A stretch of 64,000 nt of DNA from Planctomycetota bacterium (GTDB lineage Bacteria > Planctomycetota > UBA8108 > JACQVS01), in assembly GCA_041569895.1 (NCBI GenBank), contig JBFFXF010000001.1:1043-65042 (forward strand), given 5' to 3'. The translations under genes were made by a program, and so were the position numbers. The notes under the pieces are model-generated. The model was not told the origin of the DNA. It saw nothing but the letters and a program-made list of their open reading frames with translations, and did no database searches. Positions 25,049 through 61,230 of the stretch are shown here, piece by piece. Position 1 is the stretch's first letter. Each line of letters starts with the position of its first letter.

Positions 25049-25412
25049 GCCGGTCCCGCACCCGTCCCCGTTCCCGTCCCCGTCCCCGTTCCCGTCCCCG
25101 TTCCCGTCCCCGTTCCCGGTCCCGGTCCCGGTCCCGGTCCCGTGCCCGTGCCCGTGCCCGTGCCCGTGCCCGTGCCCGAACTCGTGCTCGTCGGCGTACA
25201 CCCGATGAGACTCGGAGTTCTCACTCTCGCGGGGAGCAAGGAACGGGAACGCAGCTGACGCAGATTGAGAAAGCCGCGATCGGCGGGAATCGGTCTCGGA
25301 TCTCTGTCCTCCGACGTCGGACATCGGACATCGGACTCGGGCTCGGAGTCGGAATCGGAGTCGGAGTCGCGTCTTCGAGGACGAGGACGAGGACGAGAGC
25401 AGGGTCCGGGGC
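25049..25412. repeat. composite intergenic hexamer-repeat element: (CCCGTN)n array, conserved core in reverse orientation, (CGGANN)n array and (GAGGAC)n
   Basis: Direct reading. Convergent spacer between gmhA and the M28 peptidase gene. Contains gacgcagattgag, the reverse complement of CTCAATCTGCGTC. Confidence 0.75.
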
Positions 25413-27017
25413 CTAAAAGCGCTGCAGGCGCCGGAAGCGGGGTCGTTCCGCCGCGTTCGCGACCATCCACGTCGTGTCCGCCACCGCGTGGACGATGCGC
25501 TGCATCATGTCGAGCGTCAGTTTCTCGACGTCGTCGCCCGGCTGGTGGTAGTCTCCCTCGTCGTCGGAGTGGAAGACGAGGACGGGGATCTCCCGCGCGA
25601 AGAAGGGGAAGTGGTCGCTTCTCGCGTTGACACGCGAGCCGGCGAAGTTTGGCTCGGCGATTCCAGCGCGCTCCAGGGCGAGGCGCGCCGATCGGTCGAG
25701 GACGTGGCAGTAGAACCCACCCATCGCCAGGACGGTGTTCCTGGTCGAGCGCCCGACCATGTCCATGTTGATCATCGCCACCGTCTGGTCGAGCGGCACC
25801 AGCGGGTGCTCGACGTAGTAGCGTGATCCGAGGAGGCCCTTCTCCTCCGCGTTGAACGCGATGAAGAGCACGCTCCGGCGCGGACGTACCGGCTGGTGAA
25901 CGAACGCGCCGGCGATCTCGAGGAGCGCCGCGGTGCCGCTCGCGTTGTCGTTGGCGCCGTTCATCACCTCGCCGCCGCGGATGCCCTCGTGGTCGAGGTG
26001 CGCCCCGATGACCACCCACTCGTCGCGCACCGCCGGGTCGGCGCCGCGCAGCGCCGCCGCGACGTTCCAGGTCGGCAGCGTCTCGCGCCGGCGATCGAGC
26101 CCGAGCGTCACCTGCACGCCGGTGGCGCGTGAGCGCGGCTGGCGGGACGCATCGATCTCGCGCTGGAGGGCCTCGAGGTCGATCGCTCGCGAGACCTGCT
26201 CGACGAGCCGCTTGCCGGCGAAGACGAAGGGGATGCCCGGGCCGCCGTCGTCATCGGGCCGATCGCCGTCGCCGTTCGCCCCGCCGGCGAGCCCGGAGAT
26301 CGCCCGCCCGCCGCTCGAGCCGAAGTGGCGCTGCCCGCCGCAGTGGATCGGATCGTTGACCAGCACGAGGCCGGCGGCGCCGTGTCGGATGGCGTTCTCG
26401 AGCTTGGTGTCGAAGCGAGCGTGCCGGGTGTGGGTCCTCCCCTCGAACCACGACTCGCGTTCCCGCTCGCGCGGCTCGTGACGCAGGACGAGGACGACCT
26501 TGCCCTTGATGTCGATGCCGTCGTAGTCGTCGTAGTCGTGCTCGGGGGCCGTGATGCCGTAGCCGCAGAAGACGAGCTCCGACGTTGCGCGCCCGCCGCC
26601 GCTCCACGGAAAGATCGCGAAGTCCGGTCCCGGTCGGAGAGGCTGGCCGTCGACCTCGAGGCTGACGTTCTCGAACGCGGTCGCCGCGAGCCGGAACGGT
26701 TGAAAGAAGCGGCGGGGACCGGTGGCGCCGTCCGGCGTCGACCCGACCGGCTCGAGTCCGAGTTGCTCGAAGTGCGACGCGATGTAGAGCGTCGCGAGCT
26801 CGTTCCCGCGCGAGGCCGAGTCGCGCCCCTCGAGCTGATCGCTGGCGAGGAAGCGGACGTGCGCGAGCAGGCGCCGCTGTGTGATGCGAGCGGGATCGAG
26901 AACGGCTGCCGCGTCCGCCACCGCAAGCGGCGACGGGCTCCCGGCGAACGCCAGTGGCTGGAGCAGCGCGACGGCGATCGGAATGACCGTCACCGCCAGC
27001 GCGCGCCGCGTCAGCAC
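25413..27017 (-). CDS. M28-family aminopeptidase with PA domain, secreted
   Basis: GANDNASG, FNAEEKGLLGS and DHFPF motifs. GTG start at 27015-27017 gives signal peptide LTRRALAVTVIPIAVALLQPLAFAG and sits 1 nt after the upstream stop. Confidence 0.75.
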   Translation of the reverse strand: MLTRRALAVTVIPIAVALLQPLAFAGSPSPLAVADAAAVLDPARITQRRLLAHVRFLASDQLEGRDSASRGNELATLYIASHFEQLGLEPVGSTPDGATGPRRFFQPFRLAATAFENVSLEVDGQPLRPGPDFAIFPWSGGGRATSELVFCGYGITAPEHDYDDYDGIDIKGKVVLVLRHEPRERERESWFEGRTHTRHARFDTKLENAIRHGAAGLVLVNDPIHCGGQRHFGSSGGRAISGLAGGANGDGDRPDDDGGPGIPFVFAGKRLVEQVSRAIDLEALQREIDASRQPRSRATGVQVTLGLDRRRETLPTWNVAAALRGADPAVRDEWVVIGAHLDHEGIRGGEVMNGANDNASGTAALLEIAGAFVHQPVRPRRSVLFIAFNAEEKGLLGSRYYVEHPLVPLDQTVAMINMDMVGRSTRNTVLAMGGFYCHVLDRSARLALERAGIAEPNFAGSRVNARSDHFPFFAREIPVLVFHSDDEGDYHQPGDDVEKLTLDMMQRIVHAVADTTWMVANAAERPRFRRLQRF

Positions 27018-27018
27018 G

Positions 27019-28602
27019 TCAACACTCCGGGAGCCCGTCCGGCGTCGGATCGAGACCGGCTTCCGGGAACGGCTCCGGCATCGGCGGTCCACCCTGGAAG
27101 AGGAAGTTCAGGATGTAGACGCCGTCGGAGAGGTCCGTGTTGCCGTCGTCGTTGGCATCGAGGGAGTCGCGGCACGGAGACGCGGCCGGCTGGCCGAGGA
27201 ACAGGTCGTTGAAGACGGAGACGCCGTCGGAGAGGTCGACGTTGCCGCTGTTGTTGGTGTCGCCGCGAATGAAAGGCGTCCCCGCGGGGTAGCAGAAACC
27301 CCTGTCGTCGAAGTCACAGCCCGCGTCGGTGCACACCTCGACGCGCACGCAACCCCCCGCGTCACACTCGGGGGCGGTCACGAGGAGCTGTGACCCCCCG
27401 CCGCCGAGCTCCGCGGGCACGACGACACCGCACACGCGGACGACGAGGTTCGGGGCGTCGGTGAAGTTGCGGCCGATGATGAAGAACGTCGATCCGGCCT
27501 CACCCTCGTTGTTGACGAAGGAGTCGATGACCGGGACGCCCGGCGGCTCGGGATAGGTGAAGCCGTCGGGATCCGTCACGCAGCCGAAATCGTTGCAGAC
27601 CTCGACCCCGGCGGGGCCCGGACCGCAGTCGGGCGCGGTCACCTGGATCGTCTGCGGGTTCGGCACGTTGAAGGTCGCCTCGGCGCCGAAGACCCGGACG
27701 GTGGTCCCCGGCTTGTCGAAGTTCTCGCCGACGACGATGAACACCGTTCCCGGCGGGCCGCTGTTGTTGATGTACTGGTCCTCGAAGATCACCGGCGCGT
27801 TCGACGGGTACTCGAACCCCTCGGGCTCGACGGTGCAGCCGAAGTCGTTGCAGACCTCGATGCGCGCCTTGCCAGGAGTGCACTCTGGAGCCGTCACCTG
27901 GAGGTTCTCGTCATCGATCACGATGAACTCCGCCGGCTTGTTGCAGACCGAGACGCGCAATCCCGGCTGTTCGAAGTTCTCGCCGACGATGAAGAAGATC
28001 GTTCCCGGATCGCCGCGGTTCTGGGCGAAGTCGGTCAGCTTCGGCCGCGGATCGATGATGGTGAGGTCTCCATCCTCGAGATTCGGGGGCGGCGAGAAGG
28101 AGTTCCCGTCGGAGTCGGTCATGACGTTCGTCCGCACGGGGCTGACGTTCGTCCGGTTGACGAGGTTGAGCACGGTCTCCGTGGCAGTCGAGGAACGCAC
28201 GTCGATGACGAGTCGCAGGAGCTCGAGATCGGATCCCGGCTCGAGGTGCCGATCCGCGGTCGCCTGCGACGTGCTGAAGACGACGCCCCAGACCACGCGG
28301 CCGGCGCTGTCGTCGATGGTCCCGTCGGCCCATTCGGGGGACAGGCCGGCGACGGCGTCGCCGAGCTGGACCTCCTTGATCCGGATCTTCGTGCGCTCGT
28401 ACTCGATGGAGATCGAGAATCCGTAGAGGTCCTCGTCGACATCCGCGCGGATCGAGATGACCTGGTTCGCCGCGTTGATCGGCAGCCTCGCGTCCTCGAT
28501 GGAGAAGCGATTCACCGCCTGGAGGTCCGTTCCCGTGGTCAGGATGACGACAAGGAGAAGCACGCCGAGGAGCGCGCCCGTGTGCGACTGTCGAAAGCTC
28601 AT
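27019..28602 (-). CDS. secreted protein with four IPT/TIG-like repeats and C-terminal dockerin-like EF-hand pair
   Basis: Signal peptide. Repeated ~90-aa units (GTIFFIVGENF...VTAPECxPG...VEVCNDFGC). C-terminal GDTNNSGNVDLSDGVSVFNDLFLG and DANDDGNTDLSDGVYILNFLFQGG. Confidence 0.7.
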   Translation of the reverse strand: MSFRQSHTGALLGVLLLVVILTTGTDLQAVNRFSIEDARLPINAANQVISIRADVDEDLYGFSISIEYERTKIRIKEVQLGDAVAGLSPEWADGTIDDSAGRVVWGVVFSTSQATADRHLEPGSDLELLRLVIDVRSSTATETVLNLVNRTNVSPVRTNVMTDSDGNSFSPPPNLEDGDLTIIDPRPKLTDFAQNRGDPGTIFFIVGENFEQPGLRVSVCNKPAEFIVIDDENLQVTAPECTPGKARIEVCNDFGCTVEPEGFEYPSNAPVIFEDQYINNSGPPGTVFIVVGENFDKPGTTVRVFGAEATFNVPNPQTIQVTAPDCGPGPAGVEVCNDFGCVTDPDGFTYPEPPGVPVIDSFVNNEGEAGSTFFIIGRNFTDAPNLVVRVCGVVVPAELGGGGSQLLVTAPECDAGGCVRVEVCTDAGCDFDDRGFCYPAGTPFIRGDTNNSGNVDLSDGVSVFNDLFLGQPAASPCRDSLDANDDGNTDLSDGVYILNFLFQGGPPMPEPFPEAGLDPTPDGLPEC

Positions 28603-28744
28603 ATTTGACTCTGCAGTCCTGTTTTCCACGCTGGAAGAGGATCCCGGACGGCTCTGGCCGACCAGCCACGTCGAGCGCCCGGGTACCGTGAGCCGGGACC
28701 CACCCCACCCCAATCCGCAGATTATCTCACAGCTCGCGGGCGGC

Positions 28745-28835
28745 TTGCAGAAATTTCTCGGGCGCCTTCGGCGGGGACGGGGACGGGCACGGGCACGGGT
28801 ACGGGAACGGGTACGGGAACGATTACGGGAGTCAC
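28745..28835. repeat. hexamer array (GGGGAC/GGGCAC/GGGTAC/GGGAAC)n
   Basis: Direct reading. Between the M29 aminopeptidase stop and the IPT-protein start. Confidence 0.7.
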
Positions 28836-28851
28836 GACCGCGTCCGTGTGT

Positions 28852-29973
28852 TCAGCTCTCGCCCAGGCGGTCCGGATTGAGGCCGGCGAGGTCGTCGGTG
28901 ACGAAGATCCCGTCCCTGCGGATCGGCTCGCCGTCGAAACGGATCTCGCCGCCGCCGTACTCGGGTCGCTGGATCGTCACCAGGTCCCAGTGGATCTCGG
29001 AGCGGTTGCCGTTGTCGGCCTCCTCGTACGCCTGGCCGGGAGTGAAGTGGAACGAGCCGGCGATCTTCTCGTCGAAGAGGATGTCGAGCATCGGCGTCAG
29101 GATGCGCGGGTTGAATGCGATCGAGAACTCGCCGACGTACCGCGCTCCCTCGTCCGAGTCGAGGATCTCCTCGATGCGCTTCTGGGGCCTCGCCGAGACG
29201 TTGACGACGCGGCCGCGCTCGAACTCGAGGACGATGTTCTCGAAGACGACCCCGTGGTACGGGCTCGGGGTGTTCACCGAGAGCTTCCCCTCGACCGAAT
29301 CGCGCACCGGCGCGGTGAACACCTCGCCGTCCGGGATGTTCTGGGTTCCGGCGCAGCCGATCGCCGGGATGCCCTCGATCGAGAAACGGAGATCGGTGCC
29401 GGGACCGATGATGTGCACTTCGCGCGTCTTCTCCATGCGCTCCACCAGCGGCTCCATCGCCCGCGCCATGGCGACGTAGTCGAGCGTCGACACGTCGAAG
29501 AAGAAGTCCTCGAACGCCTCCGTCGATTGCCGCGCGAGCTGCGCCATCGAGGGGTTCGGCCAGCGCAGCACGACCCATTTCGTCTTCGGCACGCGGATCT
29601 CGCTGTGCACTCTCTTCCAGAGCGTGCGCTGGAAGATCGCCAGACGTTCCTGGGGGATGTCGGAGTGCTCCGAGATGTTGCTCGAGCCGCGGACGCCGAT
29701 GTAGGCCTGCACGTTCTCCATCTGGAGCTTCTCGACCTCGGCCCAGAGCTCCATCTGCTCCGCGCTCGCGTTCAGGTAGAGCTCGCGAAGAACACGGTTG
29801 TGCTTCGTCATGCAGAGGGGCACGCCGCCGGCCTCGACGACCGCGCGGATGAGAACGACGAGGAACTCCTCCGGGATGTCGTAGGCCTCGATGAGCACCT
29901 TCTCGTCGGGGTTGATCTTGGTCGAGTGGCCGACCAGAATGTCGGCGAGTTTCCTGTAGCGTGGATCGAACAC
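28852..29973 (-). CDS. M29-family aminopeptidase (AmpS/PepS-like)
   Basis: About 370 aa with typical M29 length and conserved acidic/His positions. GTG start chosen at VFDPRYRKLADILV; a longer ATG start at 30084 is possible. Confidence 0.65.
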   Translation of the reverse strand: MFDPRYRKLADILVGHSTKINPDEKVLIEAYDIPEEFLVVLIRAVVEAGGVPLCMTKHNRVLRELYLNASAEQMELWAEVEKLQMENVQAYIGVRGSSNISEHSDIPQERLAIFQRTLWKRVHSEIRVPKTKWVVLRWPNPSMAQLARQSTEAFEDFFFDVSTLDYVAMARAMEPLVERMEKTREVHIIGPGTDLRFSIEGIPAIGCAGTQNIPDGEVFTAPVRDSVEGKLSVNTPSPYHGVVFENIVLEFERGRVVNVSARPQKRIEEILDSDEGARYVGEFSIAFNPRILTPMLDILFDEKIAGSFHFTPGQAYEEADNGNRSEIHWDLVTIQRPEYGGGEIRFDGEPIRRDGIFVTDDLAGLNPDRLGES

Positions 29974-30115
29974 AGACCGTCTCCCTTCGCTGATCGAGGC
30001 CTCAGTCCGGCCGTCTCGGTCGTCGAGATCGTTGGTCGCGGGTTCCGGAGAATGTACCCGGAACGGTTCACGACCTGAATCCAAAACCTGATTCCCGGCT
30101 CCCGGGTCGCGCGTC

Positions 30116-31510: not shown

Positions 31511-31602
31511 GCGTTTTTTTGAAACGGAAACGAGTACAATGGGCGCCCGGCGGTGACGGCCCGTCGCCGCCGTGTGTCGATCCAGCAGAAGGAGGAATCG
31601 CC

Positions 31603-32394: not shown

Positions 32395-32447
32395 CGCGGG
32401 GAATCGGGTCCGGGGACCGGGCGGGAGCCCTTCCCCGGGCCTCGAAG

Positions 32448-32774: not shown

Positions 32775-32984
32775 GAGAACCTCCGATCGAGTGAGAGAAA
32801 GGAATCCGTGGCCGCCGGCCCAAAGCGGCGGCGCTTTCCCCCCGCACAACCGGAGCGCAGGCCGTGTCAAGGACGACGAAGTCGCCGAGCAAAGCGAGGG
32901 AATCCTTGATATGGCCGAGCACCGGTTACAATCGACCGGTCGACGCCGCCGCCCCCCGCCGATCTGAACGCCTCCGCATCGACT

Positions 32985-33060
32985 CTGCCCTCTGCCCTCT
33001 GATCTCTGATCTCTGATCTCTGATTTCTGGTCTCTGATCTCTGATCTCTGTCTCCGTCCC
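32985..33060. repeat. heptamer tandem repeat (CTCTGAT)n with (CCCTCTG) lead-in
   Basis: Direct reading: ctctgatctctgatctctgatctctgatttctggtctctgatctctgatctctg. Confidence 0.75.
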
Positions 33061-33066
33061 CCCCCC

Positions 33067-39183: not shown

Positions 39184-39480
39184 ATCACGTCTCCGTTCTT
39201 CTTCCGGGCCCGGTTCTCGTCCTCGTCCTCGTCCTCGTCCTCGAAAACCCCTCGTCACCGCGTTGGATGTCCGATACCGAGACCGCTTTCGACCCTGACT
39301 CTGACTCCGACGCCGACCCCGATACCGACTCCGATACCGCTTCCGACCCCGATTCCGATACCGGCGCCGACACCGACCCCGACTCCGACACCGACACCGA
39401 TTCCGACTCCGATACCGATATCCTCGCGTGTGCTCTGCTCTGTCCGGTCACTTTCCGCGTGCTCTTCGTTTCCGCCCCCC
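39184..39480. repeat. composite intergenic hexamer-repeat element: (TCCTCG)n then (CCGAYN)n x~25
   Basis: Direct reading. Divergent spacer between the SBP gene and the FHA-M64 gene. Confidence 0.75.
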
Positions 39481-39583
39481 GCTTCCCGATCCCACCCTCT
39501 GGCCGTCGAGTGTATCATAGACCCTCTTGTTTCGACTCTCCCGCGTGAAGAGAGGCCGGCGCACCCATCACGGAGTTCCTCGC

Positions 39584-42500
39584 ATGAGAATCGTTCTCGA
39601 GGAGAACGCCGCCCGGCGCGTGTTCGAGTTCGAGGAGGGTCGCGAGCTGGTCCTCGGCCGCGCCCCGGACTGCGATATCCCGCTCGCGACGCTGCGCGCG
39701 TCGCGTCACCATGCCCGGATCGTCCTCGAGGACGGCCGGCACTGGCTGGTCGACGAGGGCTCGTCGAACGGGACTCTGGTCAACGGCGCGCGGGTGGACC
39801 GGCGCGCGCTCTCATCGGGGGACGTCATCGCCATCGGCGAGGCGCTGCTCCGCTTCGAGACCCACCGCCGGACCGGACTGGCGTTTCCCGGCGTCTACGC
39901 CGCGTTCCTCGCGCTGCTCTGGGCGGTGCTGGTGGTCTCGCTGGTCGTGCTGGCCGTGCGCCAGCTCACCGACGAGGGGGAGCGGCTGGCGGTGCGACGG
40001 GCGGGGTCGGTCTCCGGCATGGAGTCGGCCGGGGATCGCGGGAGCGCCGCGGATTCGGGTGCGGGTGCCGTACCCGTTCCCGTACCCGCTCCCGTACCCG
40101 TACCCGTACCCGTACCCGTTCCCGTACCCGTTCCCGACACCGACATCGAAACCGACACCGAAACCGACACCGATACCGATACCGATACCGATACCAAGAC
40201 CGACAGCGATTCCCGGGTGGCCGATGTGCTTCGTCCCATCATTGCCGGGGAGCGTGGCTGGGAGGGTGTCGATGCGCTCGTCGCGCTGCGCTCCGGGTCG
40301 CCGGATGCCGAGGACATGCCGTTTCTCGATCGGCTCGTGCCGGTGCTGCGCGGGCTTCGCGAGGGCGCGTGGCGTCGTCTCGACGAGCAGGCGGCGACCG
40401 CGATCGCGGCGCTCGTCGAGCGCGGCGAGGCGCGTTCCGCGGCGGCGACGGCGCGCTTCCTGGCGGTGGTCGCGCCGGGGGAGGACGCTCGTTCGCGCTG
40501 GGAGTCGGCGGCGCGATCGATCGAGGACAGCGTGGACCTCGAGTCGGACGGCGAGACGCAGCCTGTCGTGCCGCGCGAGGATCGGCGGCCCGACGACGAG
40601 CCGCTCTCATCGCCCGAGGCGCTCGCGCTCAAGGATCGCATCGCCGAGGCGATCGAGCAGTGTCGTTTCGATGAGCTCTCCTCGATCTACCACGCCCTGC
40701 TCGCCCTCGGGCCGTCGCCCGGCGAGCGCCTCCGCCTGCTCGAGGGATTGCTCGCGGCGTACGCGATGGAGGTGATGTTCGGCGAGTTCGTCGCGCGTGC
40801 GGCGACCGACCCGCCCGCGGTGAGCCCGTACGCGGGCTACGAGGGGCGCGTCCTCGAGGTGTCGCGCGATGCCGTCCGCTTCGAGCTCGACATCGAGGGG
40901 CGCGAGGGCGCGTACCGTGACAGCACGACGTGGCGCCGGATCACCTGGCCGAAGAAGCTCGAGCTCTTCAGCAGCGTCCCCCTGAGCCCGCGCGGCCTCG
41001 TCGGCGTCGCGCTCTACGCCTTTCACCACGGACACGAGGAGGGCGCGCACGCGGCGCTGATCCGCCTTCGCAAGCGCAAGGATGGCGCGACGCTCGCGGA
41101 CAGCGTCCTCGCGAGCCGGCTCGGCGTGCCGGTGCCGCCTGGCGGGTTCGTCGAGTATCGCGGCCGTCTCGTCACGCCGGAGTATCGCGCCGCCGAGATC
41201 GCCCGCCGCGAGCGCCTCGAGGAGGAGGAGCGCGCCGCGCGAGCGGAGCTCGAGCAGCTCAAGAAGGAGGCGGGGCTCGCCGCGTACGTGCAGGTCGCCC
41301 GCCGCTATCGCGAACGCGGGCTCTTCGAGCTCGCCCAGCACATCCTCGAGGTCCTCGCGCGACGCTTCTCGAACACCGAGGCCGGCGCGGAAGCGAGGCG
41401 GCTCGCCGATGATCCCGTCCTCGTCGTCAGGCCGATCGCCGCTTCCGGTCCGTCGAGCAACCGACTCGACATCTGCCTCCTCGGCGAGGGTTACACGCTC
41501 GACGACGAGGCGCAGGACGCGTTCCTCGCGCGCGCCCGCTCGGCGGCGTCGCTGCTCTTCAGGGAGGAGCCGTACCGCGAGTACGCCTCGTACTTCAGCC
41601 TGCACGCCGTGCAGGTCGCCTCGGCAGAGCACGGTCTCGATCGCGAGCCCGGCGGAGTGGCTCGCGACACCGCTCTCGGCGGCCGAGTCGAGTGGGACCG
41701 CTTCACCGTGGACGAGTCGCTGGTGCGCGCGATCCTCGCACGACTCGGCGATCGCGGCCGCGACGGACAGGCGGTGGTGATCGGGAACGCCCACGCCGGC
41801 GTGGCGACCGCGAGCCCCGGCATCGCGTGCATCTCGAAGATCGCGGTCGCCTCGCTCGGGCACGAGCTCGGCCACTCGCTCGGCAGCCTGCGCGACGAGT
41901 ACGACTTCGAGCCCGGCACCGATCCCGAGCGCCACGTCGACAACCGCCGCGAGCCCGACGTCCCGACCGCCGCGCTGCCGCCGAACATCATGCGCGGCTC
42001 GGACCGCGACGACGTGCTCGAGAAGGCCATCTGGCGGCCGTGGATCGAGGCGGGCGAGTCGCGGTGGTGGAACGGCGCCGGGGTCTCCGCCTTCCAGGGC
42101 GGCAACCGCAGGCGCTTCAACTACTGGCGCCCGCAGGCGACATGCAAGATGCGCACGTCGAGCGCGGAGTTCTGCGTCGTTTGCATGGAAGCGATGGTGA
42201 AGAGCATCTACCGCCACGTGCGCCCGATCGATCGCGTCGAGCCGTCGAGCGAGGAGGTCACCATCGACGAGGGCGGCTCGACGAGCGTGCGCGTCTGGAC
42301 CCTGAAGCCGCGCTCGCGATTCCTCGAGACGACCTGGCGCCTGGTCGAGCTCCAGGCGGAGCCGAACGCGACCGGAACCACCTCGGTCGCCGGCGACACA
42401 CGACCGGTCCCGCTCGCCAGGACCGGCCGCCGCATCGACCCGTCAGGCGCGCCGATCGAAATCGCCATCCTCCGGGACCTGGCGCCCGGACGCTACCGGC

Positions 42501-42601
42501 TTCAGGTCACCGTGCGAGACACGACGCCGTGGGTGCTCGACGACGGTGAGGGGCTGCTGTCGGAGGTGCGGGACTGGACGGTGGTGGTGCGGGGGCGGTG
42601 A
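39584..42601 (+). CDS. FHA-domain transmembrane protein with extracytoplasmic peptidase M64 (IgA-peptidase-like HExxH...DEY) domain
   Basis: N-terminal FHA (GRAPDCDIPL...SRHHARI...SSNGTLVNG). TM helix AFLALLWAVLVVSLVVLAV. C-terminal HELGHSLGSLRDEYD zinc-metallopeptidase motif. Confidence 0.8.
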   Translation: MRIVLEENAARRVFEFEEGRELVLGRAPDCDIPLATLRASRHHARIVLEDGRHWLVDEGSSNGTLVNGARVDRRALSSGDVIAIGEALLRFETHRRTGLAFPGVYAAFLALLWAVLVVSLVVLAVRQLTDEGERLAVRRAGSVSGMESAGDRGSAADSGAGAVPVPVPAPVPVPVPVPVPVPVPDTDIETDTETDTDTDTDTDTKTDSDSRVADVLRPIIAGERGWEGVDALVALRSGSPDAEDMPFLDRLVPVLRGLREGAWRRLDEQAATAIAALVERGEARSAAATARFLAVVAPGEDARSRWESAARSIEDSVDLESDGETQPVVPREDRRPDDEPLSSPEALALKDRIAEAIEQCRFDELSSIYHALLALGPSPGERLRLLEGLLAAYAMEVMFGEFVARAATDPPAVSPYAGYEGRVLEVSRDAVRFELDIEGREGAYRDSTTWRRITWPKKLELFSSVPLSPRGLVGVALYAFHHGHEEGAHAALIRLRKRKDGATLADSVLASRLGVPVPPGGFVEYRGRLVTPEYRAAEIARRERLEEEERAARAELEQLKKEAGLAAYVQVARRYRERGLFELAQHILEVLARRFSNTEAGAEARRLADDPVLVVRPIAASGPSSNRLDICLLGEGYTLDDEAQDAFLARARSAASLLFREEPYREYASYFSLHAVQVASAEHGLDREPGGVARDTALGGRVEWDRFTVDESLVRAILARLGDRGRDGQAVVIGNAHAGVATASPGIACISKIAVASLGHELGHSLGSLRDEYDFEPGTDPERHVDNRREPDVPTAALPPNIMRGSDRDDVLEKAIWRPWIEAGESRWWNGAGVSAFQGGNRRRFNYWRPQATCKMRTSSAEFCVVCMEAMVKSIYRHVRPIDRVEPSSEEVTIDEGGSTSVRVWTLKPRSRFLETTWRLVELQAEPNATGTTSVAGDTRPVPLARTGRRIDPSGAPIEIAILRDLAPGRYRLQVTVRDTTPWVLDDGEGLLSEVRDWTVVVRGR
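40070..40210 (+). repeat. in-frame hexamer arrays (CCCGTN)n + (ACCGAY)n encoding (PV)n and (TD)n inside the FHA-M64 gene
   Basis: Same two hexamer families as the intergenic elements; here the frame is maintained. Confidence 0.8.
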
Positions 42602-42649
42602 GGGGGGGCTCGTTCGCGAGATTCGACAACGAGCCTCGAATCGTCGTCG

Positions 42650-42860
42650 TCCTCGAAAGCCTTGGATGGCGGAGTCCGATGTCCGATTCCGCGATCCGAG
42701 TCCGATTCCGATGACCGATTCCGAGGTCCGACTCCGACGTCGACGTTGTAAGGAATGCGTTCCCGTACCCGAAAAGCCGGCGACTCACGCGAGGCTCACG
42801 AGGCTCGACCCACTCATGACTTCCGTTTCCTGCTTTCCCTGAGTTTCCTGCCTTCCTCAT
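42650..42860. repeat. (TCCGAN)n hexamer array plus second copy (about 85% identical, reverse orientation) of the first ~85 bp of the 12645-13060 element
   Basis: Direct alignment of the reverse complement of 42770-42860 with 12690-12780 (ggaaggcaggaaactcag...gggtcgagcytcgtgagcctc). Confidence 0.65.
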
Positions 42861-45356: not shown

Positions 45357-46379
45357 TCAACGAAATTCGCCGCCCGCATCGCCGCTCGCGTCCCCCTTCA
45401 TACCGCCCCGCAGGTGCTGCAACGCGCGGGTGAAGTCATCGGGAAGGGGACACGTGAAGTGGCGCGGCTCGTCCCAGTGGGGCGGCAGGGTGTATCGATG
45501 CGCGTGGAGCGTCAGCCGTTCGATGCCGCGCACGGACGTCGGCGCGCGCGCCATCGGACCGACGCGGTACAGGGGATCGACGGCAAGGGGGTGACCGATC
45601 GCCCACGCGTGGACGCGGATCTGATGCGTGCGGCCCGTGAGCGGCAGCGCCCGAACCAGCGTCGCTCTCTCGAAACGCTCGACCACCTCGAAGACGGTGA
45701 CCGCATCCCGAGCCGTCTTGCCCGGCTTGCCGCCCGTCGCCGGCTCCGCGCGCATGCGGCCCTTGCGACCGGGACCGATCGGGCAGTCGATGGTCACGCG
45801 AGCCGGCTCGACGACGCCCTCGACGATCGCGAGGTACTCCTTCTCGATGCGCCGGTGCTCGAAGTCATCGCCGAGTCGGCGCTCCACCTCCGGCGTCAGC
45901 GCGACGATCACCAGTCCGCTCGTCAACCGGTCGATGCGGTGGACGATTCGCGGGCGCACGAAGCGCTCGGGGGGCTTGTCGCGCCGTGCCGCGAGCTCCC
46001 TCCGGATGACCAGCTCCAGACAGCTCGCGATCGCCCGGTCCCGATCGGGCACCACCGGCACGCCCGCGGGCTTGCCGAGCACGACGAGACGTGCGTCCTC
46101 GTGGAGGATGTCGATCTCCCCGGACGCGTCGTCGTTCTCGCTGCCGGCCTCGATCAGCATCGACGGCGTGTCCTCGATCGGTCGCCGGAGCACGAGCGCG
46201 TCGAGGTCGCCGACACGCTCGTCACCCGACAGCGCCCGCTCGCCGCTCCGCACGTCGCCGCGCTCGAGCACCTGCGCGATGGTGCGGCGAGACCGATCGG
46301 GCCAGAGGAGGGCGAGGTAGTCGATGAGGGGGAGGTCGTTGAAGGCGCGGTGGATGGGTACTGATAAGTCGGCGCGCAC
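45357..46379 (-). CDS. RluA-family 23S rRNA pseudouridine synthase
   Basis: VHRIDRLTSGLV catalytic Asp motif, S4-like N-terminus. GTG start at 46377-46379, placed just downstream of a hexamer array that the longer ORF reads through. Confidence 0.75.
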   Translation of the reverse strand: MRADLSVPIHRAFNDLPLIDYLALLWPDRSRRTIAQVLERGDVRSGERALSGDERVGDLDALVLRRPIEDTPSMLIEAGSENDDASGEIDILHEDARLVVLGKPAGVPVVPDRDRAIASCLELVIRRELAARRDKPPERFVRPRIVHRIDRLTSGLVIVALTPEVERRLGDDFEHRRIEKEYLAIVEGVVEPARVTIDCPIGPGRKGRMRAEPATGGKPGKTARDAVTVFEVVERFERATLVRALPLTGRTHQIRVHAWAIGHPLAVDPLYRVGPMARAPTSVRGIERLTLHAHRYTLPPHWDEPRHFTCPLPDDFTRALQHLRGGMKGDASGDAGGEFR

Positions 46380-46384
46380 AGGGT

Positions 46385-46670
46385 CAACTCCCCTGCTCGG
46401 ACCCCTTCCCGGACCCGGCCCCGGGCCCGGTCCCGTGCCCGAGAGCTTTTGGGATCGAGTACTTGGTCGACGTCGGGGCCGGGCTGTCCGGCGTTCAAGG
46501 CCGAGGCCGACGTCCCATCTGATTCCGATGACCGATTCCGATGTCCGACTCCGACTCCGATTCCGATTCCGATTCCGATGACCGAGACCGATGACCGAGA
46601 TCAGAGGCAGAGAACAGAGACCGAGTCCGATCTTCAATCTGCGTAATCGGTGAAATCTGCGTTCCCTTCT
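46385..46670. repeat. composite intergenic hexamer-repeat element: (CCCGGN)n, (CCGATN)n, GAGATCAGAGGCAGAGAACAGAGACC module and TTCAATCTGCGTAATCGGTGAAATCTGCGTTCCC core
   Basis: Direct reading. Confidence 0.8.
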
Positions 46671-46676
46671 CCCGAG

Positions 46677-51389: not shown

Positions 51390-51833
51390 CGGTGACTGCC
51401 TCCGCCTCGGGACCTTCACTGGAACGTCGAACGTCGGGGACAAGGCTGAGCGGTCCTCCGGCCTGACATAGCCGGTCCTCGCAATCTGCGTGCCAGCAGC
51501 AAAGCCCGAAGCGATTGCGCGCCCCGAAGGCCGCGGCTTCCCGATCGTCTTCCTGTCGTCCTGTCACGATGGCAGTGTTCCGGGTAATTCCCCACTCTGC
51601 GTGAGTTTTACACCATGCGTCTGCGATCTCGGTCATTGGAACTCTCGCGGCTCGAGGTCTCGGCCAATACGCCGGCGGAACCACCCGCTGTCGTCAAACC
51701 GACCGGGTCCCGCGAGCGTGCTCCCGGCTCGATCCGTCCAATCCCGAACGCCAAAAGCGGAAGCGTTGTTGCGGCCGAAGAAGGAACGTCGAGGACACGA
51801 GAGGTGGAATCCGCTCCGGGGCGAGATCTGAAG

Positions 51834-55059: not shown

Positions 55060-55263
55060 CGCTCCGCCTCCTCCGATCGCTTTCGATGGAATGTCCCCAT
55101 TCTCATATCGTGCGTGCTCGCCCGCGCGCTTGAGACCATCGTGGACGCACCGCGCCGGGTGGAGCTTCAGGCGGTGGCTCTTCCGGCCGAACACATCGAG
55201 TACACCTTCTGGTTTTCTCCTGTGTGACTTCCCCGTGAAGGAAGCTCCGGGCAGCCGCCACCG

Positions 55264-57066: not shown

Positions 57067-57095
57067 GGTCCGGGGGCCCGCCGGCTCCCGTCGTT

Positions 57096-57911
57096 TCACC
57101 CCTCCGACGTTCGTAATGTATTGAGAAACGCCTCGATCTTCTCGGCGTACTCGGGATCGACCCAGATCGGGTCGTTGTGGTCGGCGCCGCGCACGACGAG
57201 CCACTCCTTCGGCTCCGGCGCGGCCTCGAACAGCGCGCGGCCGAGGCGCATCGGGATGATGGTGTCGCGCTCGCCGTGGATCATCAGCAGCGGGCAACGG
57301 AGGCGCTCGATCCGCGCGCGACACTCGAAACGGTCCCACATCATGAGACGGACGGGGAGAAACGGATAGGCGCTGGCGGCGATGTCGACCGCGGACGTGA
57401 AGCCCGACTGCAGGATCAGTCCGGCGGGCGGGTGGCGCACTGCGAGCTCGACGGCGACGCCGCATCCGAGCGACTCGCCGAGGTAGACGAGTGCTCCGGG
57501 CGCCCGCGCCGCGAGCCACGCGACGGTCGCATCGGCGTCGCGGAAGAGCCCGCGCTCGGTGGGGGCGCCGCCGCTGCCGCCGTAGCCGCGGTAGTCGAGG
57601 CAGAAGACGCCGAACCCGAGATCGTGGAGTTGCACCATCCACGGCAGTCGGTTGCCGCGGTGCCCGGCGTTGCCGTGAAAGATGACGATCGTCGGCGGCC
57701 GCGCCCCGGGCCAGTGCCACGCGGCGAGTCGCACACCGTCGGCGGTGACGAGCTCGACCTCCTCGAGGCCGCGGAACCGCTCGCCGGCGGGAAGCGGTAC
57801 CGGTGAACGGTCGGGGAAGTACTGGAGTTGCCGCTGGAGGAAGAAGGCAAACGCGGTCAGGGCGCCGTAGATCAGAACCGCCCCCAGGAGGAGGCGCAAG
57901 AGAAGGTCCAT
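57096..57911 (-). CDS. alpha/beta-fold hydrolase
   Basis: HGNAG oxyanion motif, GESLG nucleophile elbow, catalytic His near the C-terminus. N-terminal TM helix. Confidence 0.75.
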   Translation of the reverse strand: MDLLLRLLLGAVLIYGALTAFAFFLQRQLQYFPDRSPVPLPAGERFRGLEEVELVTADGVRLAAWHWPGARPPTIVIFHGNAGHRGNRLPWMVQLHDLGFGVFCLDYRGYGGSGGAPTERGLFRDADATVAWLAARAPGALVYLGESLGCGVAVELAVRHPPAGLILQSGFTSAVDIAASAYPFLPVRLMMWDRFECRARIERLRCPLLMIHGERDTIIPMRLGRALFEAAPEPKEWLVVRGADHNDPIWVDPEYAEKIEAFLNTLRTSEG

Positions 57912-58156
57912 CGAGGGATACCTGGAGAGCTCACGCGTCGGTGTCGGGGCCTGTTCCGAGGTCCTCGCCGGTCGAGTGGCGCATGTGGTACTCGAGCGTG
58001 CCGGCGATTTCAAGGCCGACCGCACCGCTCCACGCCGCTTGTCTTGCGTCCGCCGGTGCCGGTAGAATCGGCTCGCTGTCGGACGACCGACGGTAAATAA
58101 AGAACCTCAGGGGCTCGGAAAGAGAGCCAGGGAACCCGAAAGACGCGGGAGGCGAC

Positions 58157-59458
58157 ATGAATCACCCTGCACCGGACCGCACGACGACGCGACGCGACTT
58201 CCTGCAGCGGGGCCTGGCGGCGGGCGCCCTGGTCGCCGCCCCGGCTCTCCTTCGCGGTGGACCGCCTCCCTCGGAGCGGGTGCGGGTCGGGCACATCGGG
58301 CTCGGCGGACGCGGCAGCTCGCTCCTGGCGCAGTCCCTGAAGACCTCCGACGTCGATGTCCTCGCGGTGTGCGATGTCGATCGGAGCCACCTCGACCGCG
58401 CCGTCGCCAGCGTCGGCAAGGGCGCGGCGGCGACCACCGACTACCGGAGGGTGCTCGATCGCGGCGACATCGACGCGGTGATCGTCGCCACCCCCGACCA
58501 CTGGCACGCCCTCGTCACGATCCAGGCGTGCGCCGCCGGCAAGGACGTCTACGTCGAGAAGCCCCTCTGCACCTTCGTGGCGGAGGGACGCCAGATGGTC
58601 GACGTTGCGCGCAAGCACGGTCGCATGGTGCAGGTCGGCATCAACCATCGCTCCGCGGAGTACATTCGCGAGATCGTCGAGATCATCCGCTCCGGCCGCA
58701 TCGGCAAGGTCTCCGAGGTGAAGACCTGGATGTGGGAGAATCGGTTCAAGAAGCGGACCGCGCCCTCGGCGCCTCCGGCGCACCTCGATTACGATCGCTG
58801 GCTCGGCCCGGCTCCGCGCGTGCCGTACCACCCCGACCGCGTCCACTTCAACTTCCGCTGGTGTCTCGACTACGCCGGCGGCTACATGACCGACTGGGGC
58901 GTCCACATGATGAACGTCGTGACGTTCGCGATGGACGTCGATCACAAGGGGCCGAAATCCGTCCGGGCGACCGGCCGTCCCTACGACGACAACCTCTACG
59001 ACTTCCCGCGCACCATGGAGGCGCGCTGGGAGTTCGAGGACCCCGGCTTCACGCTGACGTGGACGCAACCGGCGACCGGTGGCGACGTCCTCCCGGGAGA
59101 GCGCTACGGCATGACGTTCTACGGCGAGGCGGGGCAGCTGCGGACGAAGTTCGGCGGGCACGCCTTCTGGGTCGACGGCAAGGAGGCGCCGCTGCCCGAG
59201 CCGGCGCGCACCGTCGACGTGCCGCGCAGTCCGGGGCACTTCCGCGACTGGCTCGACTCGATCCGGTCACGAGAGCTGCCGATCGCCGACGTCGAGATCG
59301 GCCACCGCACGACCGCGCTCTGCGTCCTCGGAAACATCGCGCTCTTCACCGGTCGTCCCCTCGAGTGGGACTGGAAGCGCGAGCGTTTCATCGACGACCG
59401 TCACGCCGACGCGATGCTGGGTCGCGACGACCGCGAGCCGTACCGGCGCCCCTCGTGA
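58157..59458 (+). CDS. Gfo/Idh/MocA-family NAD(P)-dependent oxidoreductase, Tat-secreted
   Basis: Twin-arginine signal TRRDFLQRGLAAGA. Rossmann VGHIGLGGRG and EKP motifs. Confidence 0.85.
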   Translation: MNHPAPDRTTTRRDFLQRGLAAGALVAAPALLRGGPPPSERVRVGHIGLGGRGSSLLAQSLKTSDVDVLAVCDVDRSHLDRAVASVGKGAAATTDYRRVLDRGDIDAVIVATPDHWHALVTIQACAAGKDVYVEKPLCTFVAEGRQMVDVARKHGRMVQVGINHRSAEYIREIVEIIRSGRIGKVSEVKTWMWENRFKKRTAPSAPPAHLDYDRWLGPAPRVPYHPDRVHFNFRWCLDYAGGYMTDWGVHMMNVVTFAMDVDHKGPKSVRATGRPYDDNLYDFPRTMEARWEFEDPGFTLTWTQPATGGDVLPGERYGMTFYGEAGQLRTKFGGHAFWVDGKEAPLPEPARTVDVPRSPGHFRDWLDSIRSRELPIADVEIGHRTTALCVLGNIALFTGRPLEWDWKRERFIDDRHADAMLGRDDREPYRRPS

Positions 59459-60792
59459 TCCGCCAGGCGGCGAGCGTCGTCCTCTGGCGCGACCGCGGCG
59501 CTCTCGAGGTGTTTCTCGTCGAGCGCGCCCGGCGTCTGGCCTTCTTCGGCGGCTACCACGCATTCCCCGGCGGCGCCATCGAGCCGGGTGATGTCGACCT
59601 GCAAGCGTGCGCCGTGCGCGAGGTACGCGAGGAGACCGGCGTGCGACTCGATCCCGCCGCGCTGCGACCGATCACGCGTCTGGTCACGCCGTGCTTCTCG
59701 CGAGTGCGCTTCGACACGCGCTTCTTCCTCGCGAGGACCGACCGCGAGCCACGAGTCACCGGCGGCGAGCTCGCCGCGGGAGCGTGGCGAAGACCCGCCG
59801 ACGTGATGGCCGCCTGGCGTCGCGGCGACCTGTTGCTCGCGCCGCCGGCGATCGCCGTCCTGCGCGAGCTCGAGCGCGCCGGGGACGACCTCGACACGGC
59901 GGTCGACGCGCTCTCGGCGCTGCCGCCCGAGTACGAGGGCTCGGGTCTGGCGATCCCCTGGACCGCGGGCTACGAGCTCCTCCCGCTGCGCTGCGAGCCG
60001 CTGCCGCCCGAGCTGCCGATGAGCACGATGCTCGTCGGCTGGAACCGCTTCATCGTCATCGACCCTGGAACGCAGGGAGCCGCCGAGCGCGAGCACCTCA
60101 TCGAGGCGGTGGGCCGCCGCATCGACTCGGACGACCGTCTCGAGGCCATCGTCCTGACCCATCACCACGTCGACCATGTCGCCGCGCTCGACCCGCTCCT
60201 CGAGCGGTTCCCCGCGCCGGTCTGGGCCCACCGGATCACCGGCGAGCTGCTCTCTCTCGCGCTCGATCGCGAGCTCGACGACGGCGACCGCATCGAGCTC
60301 GGCGACGACCCGGCTGGCGAGCCGGGATGGGAGCTCGAGTGCGTCTTCACGCCGGGACACGCCGCCGGTCACCCGGCGCTGCACGACCCGAGACATCGCG
60401 CGCTCGTCGCCGGTGACCTCGTCTCGACCGCCGTGAGCATGTACGTCGGCTCGCCGGGCGGGCATCTCGGCACCTACTTCGAGTCGCTCGAACGCATCCG
60501 CGCGCTCGACGCGGCGATCCTCTATCCGTCACACGGCATGCCGACGATCAGCGCCCGCCAGCTGATCGATCGCACCATCAAACATCGCAAGGCGCGCCTC
60601 GACGAGATCGAGCGCCTGGTCGCGGAGCGGGGGGAGATCGACGTCCCGACCGTGGCGGCGACGGTGTACCAGGACGTCCCGCCGCGGTTCGAGGACTTTT
60701 ACCATCGGGCCGCGAGAGCGTCGCTCGAGTATCTGGTCGAGACGGGGAGGGTCGTCGCAGCAGGTGCCGACCGCTTCAGGCCGACAGACTGA
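59455..60792 (+). CDS. Nudix hydrolase fused to MBL-fold metallo-hydrolase
   Basis: Nudix box GGAIEPGDVDLQACAVREVREETG. THHHVDHV beta-lactamase-fold motif plus downstream His/Asp. GTG start overlapping the upstream TGA (GTGA). Confidence 0.7.
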   Translation: MIRQAASVVLWRDRGALEVFLVERARRLAFFGGYHAFPGGAIEPGDVDLQACAVREVREETGVRLDPAALRPITRLVTPCFSRVRFDTRFFLARTDREPRVTGGELAAGAWRRPADVMAAWRRGDLLLAPPAIAVLRELERAGDDLDTAVDALSALPPEYEGSGLAIPWTAGYELLPLRCEPLPPELPMSTMLVGWNRFIVIDPGTQGAAEREHLIEAVGRRIDSDDRLEAIVLTHHHVDHVAALDPLLERFPAPVWAHRITGELLSLALDRELDDGDRIELGDDPAGEPGWELECVFTPGHAAGHPALHDPRHRALVAGDLVSTAVSMYVGSPGGHLGTYFESLERIRALDAAILYPSHGMPTISARQLIDRTIKHRKARLDEIERLVAERGEIDVPTVAATVYQDVPPRFEDFYHRAARASLEYLVETGRVVAAGADRFRPTD

Positions 60793-60829
60793 CCGCGGTT
60801 CCCTGGGCTGTCCTCGGTGTGCTCGTGCC

Positions 60830-61230
60830 ATCGTTTCAAAAACGTACCCGTACCCGTACCCGTTCCCGTTCCCGTTCCCGTCCCCGTGCCCGCGCCCGTC
60901 CCCGTGCCCGCGCCCGTGCCCGTGCCCGTTCCCGTCCTCGAGGGCTCTGGTATCGGAGTCCGATGACCGACTCCGATACCGATGGCCGATACCGATACCG
61001 ATTCCGAGGACAGAGATCAGAGTCCGTTGATGGAGACCGCGCTCGAGACAGACGCGCTGACCGCTTCTTGCTTCAATCTGCGTAATCTGCGTTCCCGTCC
61101 CCGTCGGACTTCGGCCGCGCCTTCGAGACCGAGGATGAGACCGAGGACGAGGACGAGGACGAGGACGAAAGAAAACGGAGCGAGCTGGCAAATGCCGGCT
61201 CGCTCCGTGGTCTCGCAACGATCGCCCTTA
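60830..61230. repeat. composite intergenic hexamer-repeat element: (CCCGTN)n, (CCGATN)n, GAGGACAGAGATCAGAG module, TTCAATCTGCGTAATCTGCGTTCCC core, (GAGGAC)n
   Basis: Direct reading. Convergent spacer between the Nudix-MBL gene and the large secreted protein gene. Confidence 0.8.

Follow-up and report, generated by a model that had tools for sequence, protein, structure and literature searches.

The window, by which we mean the whole 64-kb stretch of planctomycetotal DNA that was analysed, contains intergenic mosaics of ~300 bp made of short-unit arrays (CCCGTN, TCCGAT, GAGGAC, CTCTGAT). Four of these composites (A–D) have one module order in common, with a core at the same place in each. The composites and cores, a lone core unit, a related mosaic and a complete foldback are arranged as follows:

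12640-13056: complete foldback of the same broad class, 417 nt long, with (AGGAAGGC)n and (GCCTTCCT)n as arms
17245-17493: related mosaic without the ATCTGCGT core; in minus-strand reading, (CCCGTN)n, (TCCGAT)n, then CTCTGTG/CTCCGTC units
25049-25412: composite A; in plus-strand order, (CCCGTN)20, reverse-complement core, (GGANTC)n, (GACGAG)n
25245-25268, minus strand: core A, TCAATCTGCGTCAGCTGCGTTCCC; two ATCTGCGT-type units and a terminal TTCCC, no inverted partner
42640-42860: composite D; GTCCTCGAAAGCCTTGG linker, (TCCGAT)n, degenerate core, then GTTTCCTG-type units
42755-42770, plus strand: degenerate core D, ATGCGTTCCCGTACCC; same position, after the TCCGAT array
46365-46676: composite B; CCCGGN arrays, (GATTCC)n, GAGATCAGAGGCAGAGAACAGAGA, core
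46634-46666, plus strand: core B, TCAATCTGCGTAATCGGTGAAATCTGCGTTCCC; three 9-nt units and TTCCC, the middle unit AATCGGTGA degenerate
51482-51491, plus strand: isolated CAATCTGCGT unit, in the divergent region that precedes the multihaem cytochrome gene
60843-61168: composite C; (CCCGTN)15, TCCTCGAGGGCTCTGG linker, (CCGATA)n, GAGGACAGAGATCAGAG, core, (GAGGAC)n
61073-61096, plus strand: core C, TCAATCTGCGTAATCTGCGTTCCC; perfect tandem pair AATCTGCGT AATCTGCGT and TCCC

Composite A occupies the entire convergent intergenic region between an SIS gene (plus strand) and an M28 peptidase gene (minus strand). Composite B lies between pseudouridine synthase and HAD genes, both on the minus strand, with the end of core B located 10 nt from the stop codon of the HAD hydrolase gene. 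Cores A and C are situated between convergent 3' ends, and core B is situated between co-directional genes, antisense to both. The outer arrays of composite C form a 26-nt inverted repeat with 77% complementarity. The (CCCGTN)15-20 arrays at 25061-25178 and 60843-60935 read as (NACGGG)n on the opposite strand, and these flanking CCCGTN arrays are candidate G-quadruplex sequences, with at least four consecutive G3 tracts and short loops on one strand. The foldback at 12640-13056 also occupies a convergent intergenic region, with a free energy of -212 kcal/mol (z -8.7).

Comparison with shuffled sequences indicated that the core is non-random and common to three composite repeat elements, as the initial annotation had proposed: the gapped pattern TCAATCTGCGT-N(3 or 12)-CTGCGTTCCC has three matches in the window versus 0.00 expected from 100 dinucleotide-preserving shuffles, and the exact 10-mer CAATCTGCGT has four versus 0.04 expected. 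Cores A, B and C each contain at least two tandem ATCTGCGT(N) units and end in ...CTGCGTTCCC, in agreement with the tandem construction first described; their sequences stand, their coordinates needed slight corrections, and the degenerate copy at 42755-42770 is an addition to the set. All of the three to four copies in 64 kb are intergenic, and cores A–C, with core lengths of 24–33 bases, lie amid hexamer arrays. No left-arm units of the ACGCAGAT type (the reverse-complement arm) were found within 400 nt of any window copy, and a tblastn search with the GxxExxY protein of locus L060 as query revealed no homologue (PF13366 / TIGR04256), enclosed or otherwise, in the 64-kb window. The related copy that had been placed in a divergent promoter is present as the exact 10-mer at 51482-51491 and, given the count above, is unlikely to be a chance match. 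It consists of one unit, with the second unit, the TTCCC and the surrounding arrays all absent, and a second similar 11-mer lies 111 bp downstream. This unit is a different object from cores A–C, with at most a putative tie to them, and is possibly a relic.

To examine the core beyond the window, we scanned two large collections, 596 Gb of genomes and a metagenome collection, with a pattern of 21 specified bases. The genome scan matched 54 stretches, ~46 of them in one Anaerolineae metagenome-assembled genome (MAG); further matches came from two other Anaerolineae MAGs and from three Bacteroidetes MAGs with a common orthologous locus, and two (L028 and L032) look like chance matches. The metagenome scan matched 65 stretches, at loci with a GC content of 0.36 to 0.71. 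Soil bacteria are also among the carriers of the motif. The possibility raised at the outset, that the motif is not enriched or is duplicated only within this window, is contradicted by these scans, since a core strongly enriched in other genomes and present in several phyla is not a local duplication. Similarity across lineages breaks off directly after TTCCC. At least two reverse-complement units lie within 400 nt upstream in 66 of 83 distinct copies, with a mean per copy of 3.6 such units upstream versus 0.24 downstream. The foldback arms are formed by tandem 9–11-nt units; one arm consists of ATCTGCGTN units and the opposite arm of their reverse complement. At L121 there is a perfect 20-bp inverted repeat (GGAACGCAGATGACGCAGAT / ATCTGCGTCATCTGCGTTCC), at L085 (4+4 units) the A/G differences between units of the left arm are mirrored in the right arm, and an Anaerolineae copy is predicted to form a single long hairpin (-53 kcal/mol, z -2.5). 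No GxxExxY gene was found in ~350 kb of the Anaerolineae MAG with the 46 hairpins, and no target-site duplication was seen at the boundaries read. The elements are polymorphic in array length and insertion: octamer unit number differs between strains, and a precise 164-nt insertion distinguishes some alleles from others that lack it, this sole clean presence/absence case being a second, different and nested MITE, not an ATCTGCGT element.

Analysis of the L060 locus revealed two arms enclosing a 134-aa ORF for a GxxExxY protein (TIGR04256, E 8e-41; PF13366, E 5e-42). The left arm of this cassette is an exact match to the pattern of the window cores and departs from core C at one of 24 bases. 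Units of the ATCTGCGT type were also found at independent GxxExxY loci in Methylobacter (between cheD and cheB), a Bacteroidetes MAG and a viral contig, and a soil bacterium locus of this unit type has a 34-bp inverted repeat with two mismatches. Flanking inverted repeats unmatched by any of 100 shuffles are present at seven of the 12 independent GxxExxY loci, and three more carry short or imperfect same-unit arrays that are below significance in the shuffle test. Other GxxExxY protein clades have other unit types, CACGGAGA/TCTCCGTG, CACAGAG/CTCTGTG, CTTTGTG and GGACTGAAGAA, with CTCCGTG and CTCTGTG as examples; the CTCTGTG/CTCCGTC units of the 17245-17493 mosaic resemble the right arms of such clades. 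The full-length cassette is ~450 bp; its left arm, made up of tandem units such as GGGAACGCAGAT and NACGCAGAT, overlaps the start codon, and its right arm of reverse-complement units (ATCTGCGTN ... ATCTGCGTTCCC) comes after the gene. According to the gene tables, the cassettes lie inside host operons, co-oriented with their neighbours, with the exception of the rearranged right flank of L146; intergenic gaps are short, and the called start overlaps the upstream gene end in two loci. The gene product of ~130 aa has a PD-(D/E)XK nuclease fold with invariant catalytic D...ELK residues and is a putative nuclease; the solved folds nearest to its confident AlphaFold model (pLDDT 89) are Cas4, lambda exonuclease and Hjc resolvase, and no solved structure of a GxxExxY protein was found by sequence search. 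The family is very large (at least 8000 matches), and the protein identity of ~80% between Bacteroidota and Methylobacter is an apparent sign of horizontal transfer. We found no paper on the core motif, GxxExxY cassettes or GxxExxY biology.

We define here a GxxExxY-associated foldback family of the ATCTGCGT unit type. Judged by nucleotide identity, the core is the same as cassette and hairpin arms in other phyla, where the arms pair and are associated with GxxExxY genes. The core is probably, though by no means certainly, the conserved terminal arm of widespread small foldback selfish elements, with the window copies in a reduced, one-armed and gene-less state. Because the window contains neither an inverted partner nor a GxxExxY homologue, the membership of its copies is read from 22–24 nt of identity together with their context. 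Gene loss from the cassette would give MITE-like hairpins of 70–230 nt, such hairpins would multiply inside a genome, as the ~46 Anaerolineae copies suggest, and further reduction would leave the window copies with one intact arm, without gene or complementary partner. We infer that the element spreads by homing or transposition, driven by a GxxExxY nuclease that would recognise or cut the arms. Paired arms in transcripts may form a double-stranded stem cleavable by RNase III, by analogy with 23S rRNA intervening sequences, and replication slippage may expand the array units. For the window, the practical upshot is modest: its cores most likely represent orphaned termini of these elements and do not regulate neighbouring genes, and they may be passive relics or derivatives mobilised in trans. 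Cores A, B and C are near-identical, whereas the arrays around them are degenerate, a pattern that could reflect selection for a host function instead of a relic. More tentatively, it is possible that GxxExxY (PF13366) genes and their inverted arrays constitute an unrecognised pan-bacterial class of mobile element with a minimal PD-(D/E)XK nuclease, of the same kind as 23S rRNA intervening sequences; its gene-less derivatives and orphan arms would seed many 6–11-nt intergenic arrays, including the window mosaics, and the cross-phylum 24-mer would be a recognition module of the nuclease.

The core may instead be a cis-acting RNA element in 3' untranslated regions, carried on read-through transcripts and acting in processing, stability or termination, for instance as a target of RNase III or RNase E, as a C-rich region where Rho loads or as a protein-binding platform, an explanation that we consider unlikely. 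Between convergent genes, cores A, C and D follow closely on stop codons, the strand after each convergent gene is C-rich in A and C, and the solo cores in Bacteroidetes and at L069 lie in sense orientation after a gene; however, core B is antisense to both adjoining genes, most other intergenic regions do not show the C-rich polarity, and in the Anaerolineae MAG, where gene calls are noisy, the element is found in every orientation with respect to genes. Structure prediction of the core with its arrays, as initially suggested, gave a divided result: in C, pairing is possible between the outer arrays, and none of the shuffles folded as well as the region (z -5.3), whereas region A showed no gain in folding over its shuffles (z +0.7) and the core is unpaired in the predicted folds. 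An RNA element is favoured by the Coxiella intervening sequence, the nearest analogue on record, whose stem has the same architecture and is cleaved by RNase III. The window and seven loci have no match to Rfam 15 families at the gathering threshold, with only noise at E>0.4 in permissive mode, and the window copies have no complementary partner, which argues against the free-standing structured RNA that the initial annotation envisaged.

The operator for a host DNA-binding regulator or nucleoid protein that it offered beside this, with the tandem half-sites as binding sites and the 51482 copy as a promoter site, deserves very little credence. Direct tandem repeats with a 9-bp period are typical of protein-binding arrays, and the lone 10-mer in the divergent promoter region, improbable by chance, and the 11-mer downstream of it fit such a site. 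None of cores A–C lies in a promoter, however; the positions of A and C between convergent 3' ends, the antisense position of B and the functionally unrelated adjoining genes do not fit a transcription-factor operator, and no regulator gene co-occurs with the motif. Elsewhere the motif is a foldback arm flanking GxxExxY nuclease genes, which tells against operator and structured RNA alike, and its identical occurrence in phyla of 36% to 71% GC is not expected of a lineage-specific regulon. For the family, protein recognition and hairpin formation are both plausible. It is very improbable that the core is an ordinary simple-sequence 9-mer expanded by replication slippage in each genome, its similarity across genomes reflecting convergence or chance. 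Formally it is a tandem 9-mer of two to three copies amid many other short-unit arrays, and array copy number differs between strains; yet at least eight unrelated lineages share the 21-specified-base pattern together with an identical non-repeat prefix (TCAA) and suffix (TTCCC), the prefix is explained by codons at the GxxExxY gene start (CGC AGA TTG AA, R R L N), and chance would give only a few hits in the 596-Gb scan, as estimated from database size and pattern length. The few isolated single-copy hits, among them L028, L032 and the Bacteroidetes locus, are of another kind than the multi-copy Anaerolineae cluster.

Among described systems, the selfish foldback element that we favour is closest in architecture to the 23S rRNA intervening sequence of Coxiella. 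Intervening sequences with an S23p ORF are found in Coxiella burnetii, Leptospira and Salmonella, lie in helix 25 or 45 of 23S rRNA, encode a four-helix-bundle protein and have been shown to be cleaved by RNase III (PMC4990558). In Coxiella, the small ORF lies inside terminal inverted repeats forming a long stem, with tandem short units (heptamer GACAGAT) in the 5' arm immediately ahead of the start codon; strains differ in the number of units, and the element is regarded as selfish, its mobility being unknown (PMC4990558). The cassettes likewise have an ORF between inverted short-unit arms of variable unit number, and the ...AGAT pattern recurs in ACGCAGAT and CACAGAT. Unlike the intervening sequence, the present elements lie between protein-coding genes, carry a PD-(D/E)XK GxxExxY protein or no gene, are only presumed to be cleaved by RNase III and are one-armed in the window, where an Rfam gathering search detected no rRNA. 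The GGGAATC / GGGGAYT heptamer arrays of Xanthomonas and Nostoc are abundant, intergenic, strand-asymmetric tandem arrays of 6–7-nt G3 units near ORF ends, with variable copy number and no function assigned in that paper (Rehm et al. 2015, PMC4692102). The window CCCGTN arrays similarly read as GGGNAC on the other strand; in contrast, their unit is a hexamer, and that paper reports neither a conserved non-array core nor an associated gene for the heptamers.

Like MITEs, REPINs and BIMEs, the present elements are short, gene-less, intergenic, multi-copy hairpin repeats that derive from or depend on a protein-coding partner, with mosaic and nested arrangements and presence/absence polymorphism (of the nested element). 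A REPIN is a REP doublet mobilised by a RAYT transposase, and a BIME is a mosaic intergenic element; REPs are imperfect palindromes of 20–40 nt with a conserved 5' GTAG, and the RAYT (Y1 transposase) gene is flanked by REPs. By comparison, the present arms are arrays of 7–11-nt direct units instead of one terminal inverted repeat or a GTAG palindrome, and the protein is a ~130-aa PD-(D/E)XK nuclease, not a DDE or Y1 transposase, with the partner not found in the window. A classical MITE was rejected for the window copies on their missing inverted partner, the boundaries free of duplication and the putative PD-(D/E)XK nuclease as the only associated protein, and a REP or REPIN-RAYT system on the non-palindromic ATCTGCGT unit without GTAG and the absence of a transposase domain from the 20 window proteins scanned. 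Free-standing homing endonuclease genes undergo intron-less homing in phages, and I-Ssp6803I is a PD-(D/E)XK homing enzyme. The cassettes resemble them as small nuclease genes between host genes, co-oriented and with signs of horizontal transfer. Unlike homing enzymes, GxxExxY proteins have no known cleavage target, and we know of no homing genes flanked by inverted short-unit arrays or spawning gene-less hairpins.

GxxExxY proteins have no assigned function. If the arrays are recognition or processing sites, the role of the GxxExxY nuclease, the origin of gene-less hairpins in Chloroflexi and other phyla, and the packing of intergenic regions with strand-asymmetric 6–11-nt arrays become testable. 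In practical terms, short-read assemblies may be broken by the repeats, and the matching short-read MAG contigs retrieved were only ~4-12 kb. The repeats are, in addition, markers of rearrangement breakpoints and can become part of coding sequence in frame; at the soil bacterium GxxExxY locus, the units encode the N-terminus QMNADERRLNE.

The window is an ordinary chromosome segment of 69% GC, whose genes include LysA, Ser/Thr kinases, an M28 peptidase, a HAD hydrolase, a pseudouridine synthase, and a multihaem cytochrome; the closest named relative of its LysA, from a Planctomycetes MAG, is only 64% identical. Analysis of the window confirmed the sequences of the three near-identical repeat cores (A, B, and C) described in the initial annotation and revealed a fourth, degenerate copy (D) that had been overlooked:

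25245-25268, minus strand: core A, TCAATCTGCGTCAGCTGCGTTCCC
46634-46666, plus strand: core B, TCAATCTGCGTAATCGGTGAAATCTGCGTTCCC
61073-61096, plus strand: core C, TCAATCTGCGTAATCTGCGTTCCC
42755-42770: core D, degenerate

The pattern TCAATCTGCGT-N(1-12)-CTGCGTTCCC matches 3 times in the window (0.00 in 100 shuffles), and the exact 10-mer CAATCTGCGT 4 times (0.04 expected). No reverse-complement partner was found for any of the window cores. Cores A, C, and D are located between convergent 3' ends; core B is flanked by two minus-strand genes, with the stop codon of the HAD gene 10 nt away. Every core sits inside an intergenic region of approximately 300 bp made almost wholly of short-unit tandem arrays, and these four composite elements share one module order, which starts with CCCGTN or CTCGTC arrays and a TCCTCGARGGCYYTGG linker and proceeds through (TCCGAT)n, GAGGACAGAGATCAGAG, and a short spacer to the core, with the terminal GTTCCC of the window cores continuing into more CCCGTN-type units. 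Adjoining composite element C, the minus strand carries a GC-rich hairpin and then a T-run (61170-61213), likely an intrinsic terminator serving the dockerin-domain gene (61239-63887).

The window also contains intergenic mosaics of 6-7-nt arrays (unit types GGGCAC, CGGAAT, CTCTGAT, GACTCC, and CTCGTC) that lack the ATCTGCGT core, together with one complete foldback:

17245-17493: core-less mosaic, with CTCTGTG/CTCCGTC units at its end
28772-28830: core-less mosaic
32983-33054: core-less mosaic
39216-39412: core-less mosaic
12640-13056: near-perfect foldback of 417 nt (-212 kcal/mol, z -8.7)

The foldback fills a whole convergent intergenic region; its arms consist of (AGGAAGGC)n on one side and (GCCTTCCT)n on the other, the outer arms being CCCGTGCCCGAAA and TTTCGGGCACGGG, and no ORF of a recognisable family was found inside it. 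Array types of the intergenic mosaics also occur in frame within the FHA/M64-peptidase gene (39527-42601), in which CCCGTN and then NCCGAN arrays at 40068-40209 encode a (VP)n(DT)n linker, apparently an array element that the coding sequence has tolerated or co-opted.

When species-representative genomes (596 Gb) were scanned with a 21-base pattern, 54 stretches matched: approximately 46 in one Anaerolineae MAG (JALXCB01), a single stretch in each of two more Anaerolineae MAGs, three at an orthologous locus in Bacteroidetes MAGs, and two that look like chance. A metagenome scan added 65 stretches, whose loci range between 36% and 71% GC. The initial annotation would have been refuted by copies confined to the window as local duplications; the scans show instead that the motif occurs in other genomes, with massive enrichment in some. 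The similarity between lineages reaches upstream of the core into more ATCYGCGT units and stops immediately behind TTCCC, which thus behaves as a terminus. At the Bacteroidetes locus (L023, L027, L039, L079, L097, and L118), the array of TGAAGGAY octamers upstream of the core varies in copy number among strains (spacing 159-351 nt) and acts as a variable-number tandem repeat.

Comparison of the copies from other genomes revealed that the core is typically one arm of a hairpin, in which tandem units on one side pair with their reverse complement on the other. At least two reverse-complement units lie within 400 nt upstream in 66 of the 83 distinct copies, with a mean of 3.6 units per copy upstream versus 0.24 downstream. 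Locus L121 carries a perfect 20-bp inverted repeat (GGAACGCAGATGACGCAGAT / ATCTGCGTCATCTGCGTTCC); in L085, with 4+4 units, CAGAT/CGGAT variants of the left arm are matched by ATCTG/ATCCG in the right arm, and L063 is a miniature version of 70 nt. The Anaerolineae copies align as hairpins of approximately 130 nt (-53 kcal/mol, z -2.5) and occur in all four orientations relative to genes, although gene calling is noisy at a GC content of about 60%. Within the Anaerolineae population, the T-run loop of the ATCTGCGT hairpin bears a precise insertion of approximately 164 nt in one allele that is absent from the other (L004 versus L082, and L101 versus L053); the insert is a second hairpin element with terminal GTAACTGCTAA and internal CACGAAG units. 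Inverted-core pairs 340-410 nt apart have a second MITE nested inside. A search of approximately 1 Mb of retrieved loci for a gene between inverted cores 0.3-6 kb apart returned L060 only.

In L060 (36% GC), arms approximately 400 bp apart enclose a 134-aa ORF encoding a GxxExxY protein (TIGR04256, E 8e-41; PF13366 PDDEXK_3, E 5e-42), a family of about 130 aa with a PD-(D/E)XK nuclease fold. Reverse-complemented, the left arm (GGGAACGCAGATAACGCAGATTGAT-ATG) gives the window pattern, with one mismatch to core C in 24 bases. At L060 1398-2604, tandem ssb paralogues stand directly on either side of the cassette, a duplication that may be linked to its insertion. Units of the ATCTGCGT type also flank GxxExxY genes in Methylobacter, where the cassette lies between cheD and cheB, in a Bacteroidetes MAG, in a viral contig (viral contigs yielded only 5 GxxExxY loci), and in a soil bacterium, whose 34-bp inverted repeat has two mismatches and includes the start codon. 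The arm units of the soil bacterium encode the N-terminus MEPQMNADERRLNE, with CGC AGA TTG AA coding for R R L N, and the core's non-repeat prefix, TCAA, is thereby explained.

Other GxxExxY clades are flanked by other units, namely CACGGAGA / TCTCCGTG (N-terminus HHGDTEARR), CACAGAG / CTCTGTG, CTTTGTG, and, in Gemmatirosa, whole hairpins of GGACTGAAGAA. In the G. kalamazoonensis plasmid (NZ_CP007129, 1091764-1093520; organism 72% GC), an unannotated record, complete hairpins (GGACTGAAGAA)n / (TTCTTCAGTCC)n stand on either side of the gene, and their unit closely resembles the TGAAGGAC arrays adjoining the core in Bacteroidetes. Flanking inverted repeats exceed all 100 shuffles in 7 of 12 independent GxxExxY loci. 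In the gene tables read, the cassettes are co-oriented with their neighbours in host operons, with the exception of the rearranged right flank of L146; intergenic gaps are short, and in two loci the upstream gene extends past the called start of the cassette. Between L143 and L146, and also in L153, L154, and L155, the upstream gene and cassette are the same and the sequence past the right arm differs, indicating either genome rearrangement or an assembly chimera with its breakpoint at the arm. The catalytic D...ELK motif is invariant among the proteins. A sequence-profile search of the PDB gave no match; the structure is predicted with confidence (pLDDT 89), and among solved folds the model comes closest to Cas4, lambda exonuclease, and Hjc.

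The best reading of the window cores is that they represent orphan arms of this GxxExxY-associated foldback family, each being one intact ATCTGCGT-type arm, geneless and partnerless, set in mosaics of other arrays. We rate the family as a foldback selfish element with gene-less derivatives, of which the window holds reduced copies only. The 12640-13056 foldback is of the same general class, and the units ending the 17245-17493 mosaic are like right arms of other GxxExxY clades. Judged by eye, further window arrays appear to resemble units beside those clades: CTCTGAT and GACAGAGATCAGAG resemble CTCTGTG / CACAGAG, CCCGTG resembles CTCCGTG, and AGGAAGGC resembles GAAGGAC. The nuclease may recognise or cut the arms, so spreading the cassette. 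The hairpins would be internal-deletion derivatives of cassettes; the Anaerolineae left arm retains AAAATGAGAACGCTGAT, in which arm units follow an ATG. Solo arms may arise through deletion or recombination, to which the right-flank breakpoints point, and the arrays would lengthen through replication slippage.

Full-text literature searches returned no published description of the motif, the GxxExxY cassettes, or the cassette repeats, and PF13366 is catalogued as 'unknown' and as having been transferred multiple times among lineages. The Coxiella 23S rRNA intervening sequence offers a precedent for RNA-level behaviour: it carries strain-variable numbers of tandem GACAGAT heptamers before a small ORF, and RNase III cuts its terminal stem of 28 bp (PMC4990558). 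The nearest literature also includes unexplained GGGAATC / GGGGAYT arrays in Xanthomonas and Nostoc (PMC4692102) and the general MITE and REPIN concept.

A role of the core as RNA in 3' UTRs is less probable than the orphan-arm reading. It would suit the positions of A, C, and D after stop codons, and the outer arrays of composite C are able to pair (region C, z -5.3). However, the core itself is unpaired in the predicted folds, the fold of region A does not surpass its shuffles, both genes beside core B have it in antisense, and the placement of the C-rich strand after each stop breaks down elsewhere. Rfam gave no match in a gathering search of the window and 7 loci or in a permissive search of two elements. 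Rho loading on the C-rich strand behind each stop codon, true for A and C and failing in most other intergenic regions, is retained solely as part of the 3'-UTR reading. A pure slippage product, similar by convergence, is unlikely because the non-repeat prefix and suffix are conserved. The core locations and cross-phylum identity likewise make the protein-binding site proposed initially, a host operator, unlikely. The core fits none of the DnaA box, IHF, parS, or dif consensus sequences; identity with a tRNA T-arm or an integrase att site was dropped by eye, since the complementary 5' half-stem is absent.

The fourth CAATCTGCGT match, at 51482, had been taken as a related copy; its count argues against chance, but it is a lone unit lacking TTCCC and flanking arrays and a different object from A-C. 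The divergent region upstream of the multihaem cytochrome gene carries it within a pair of similar 11-mers, CAATCTGCGTG and CACTCTGCGTG (51482-51491 and 51593-51602), equally oriented and spaced by 111 bp, and this pair could be a genuine operator, separate from the repeat family.
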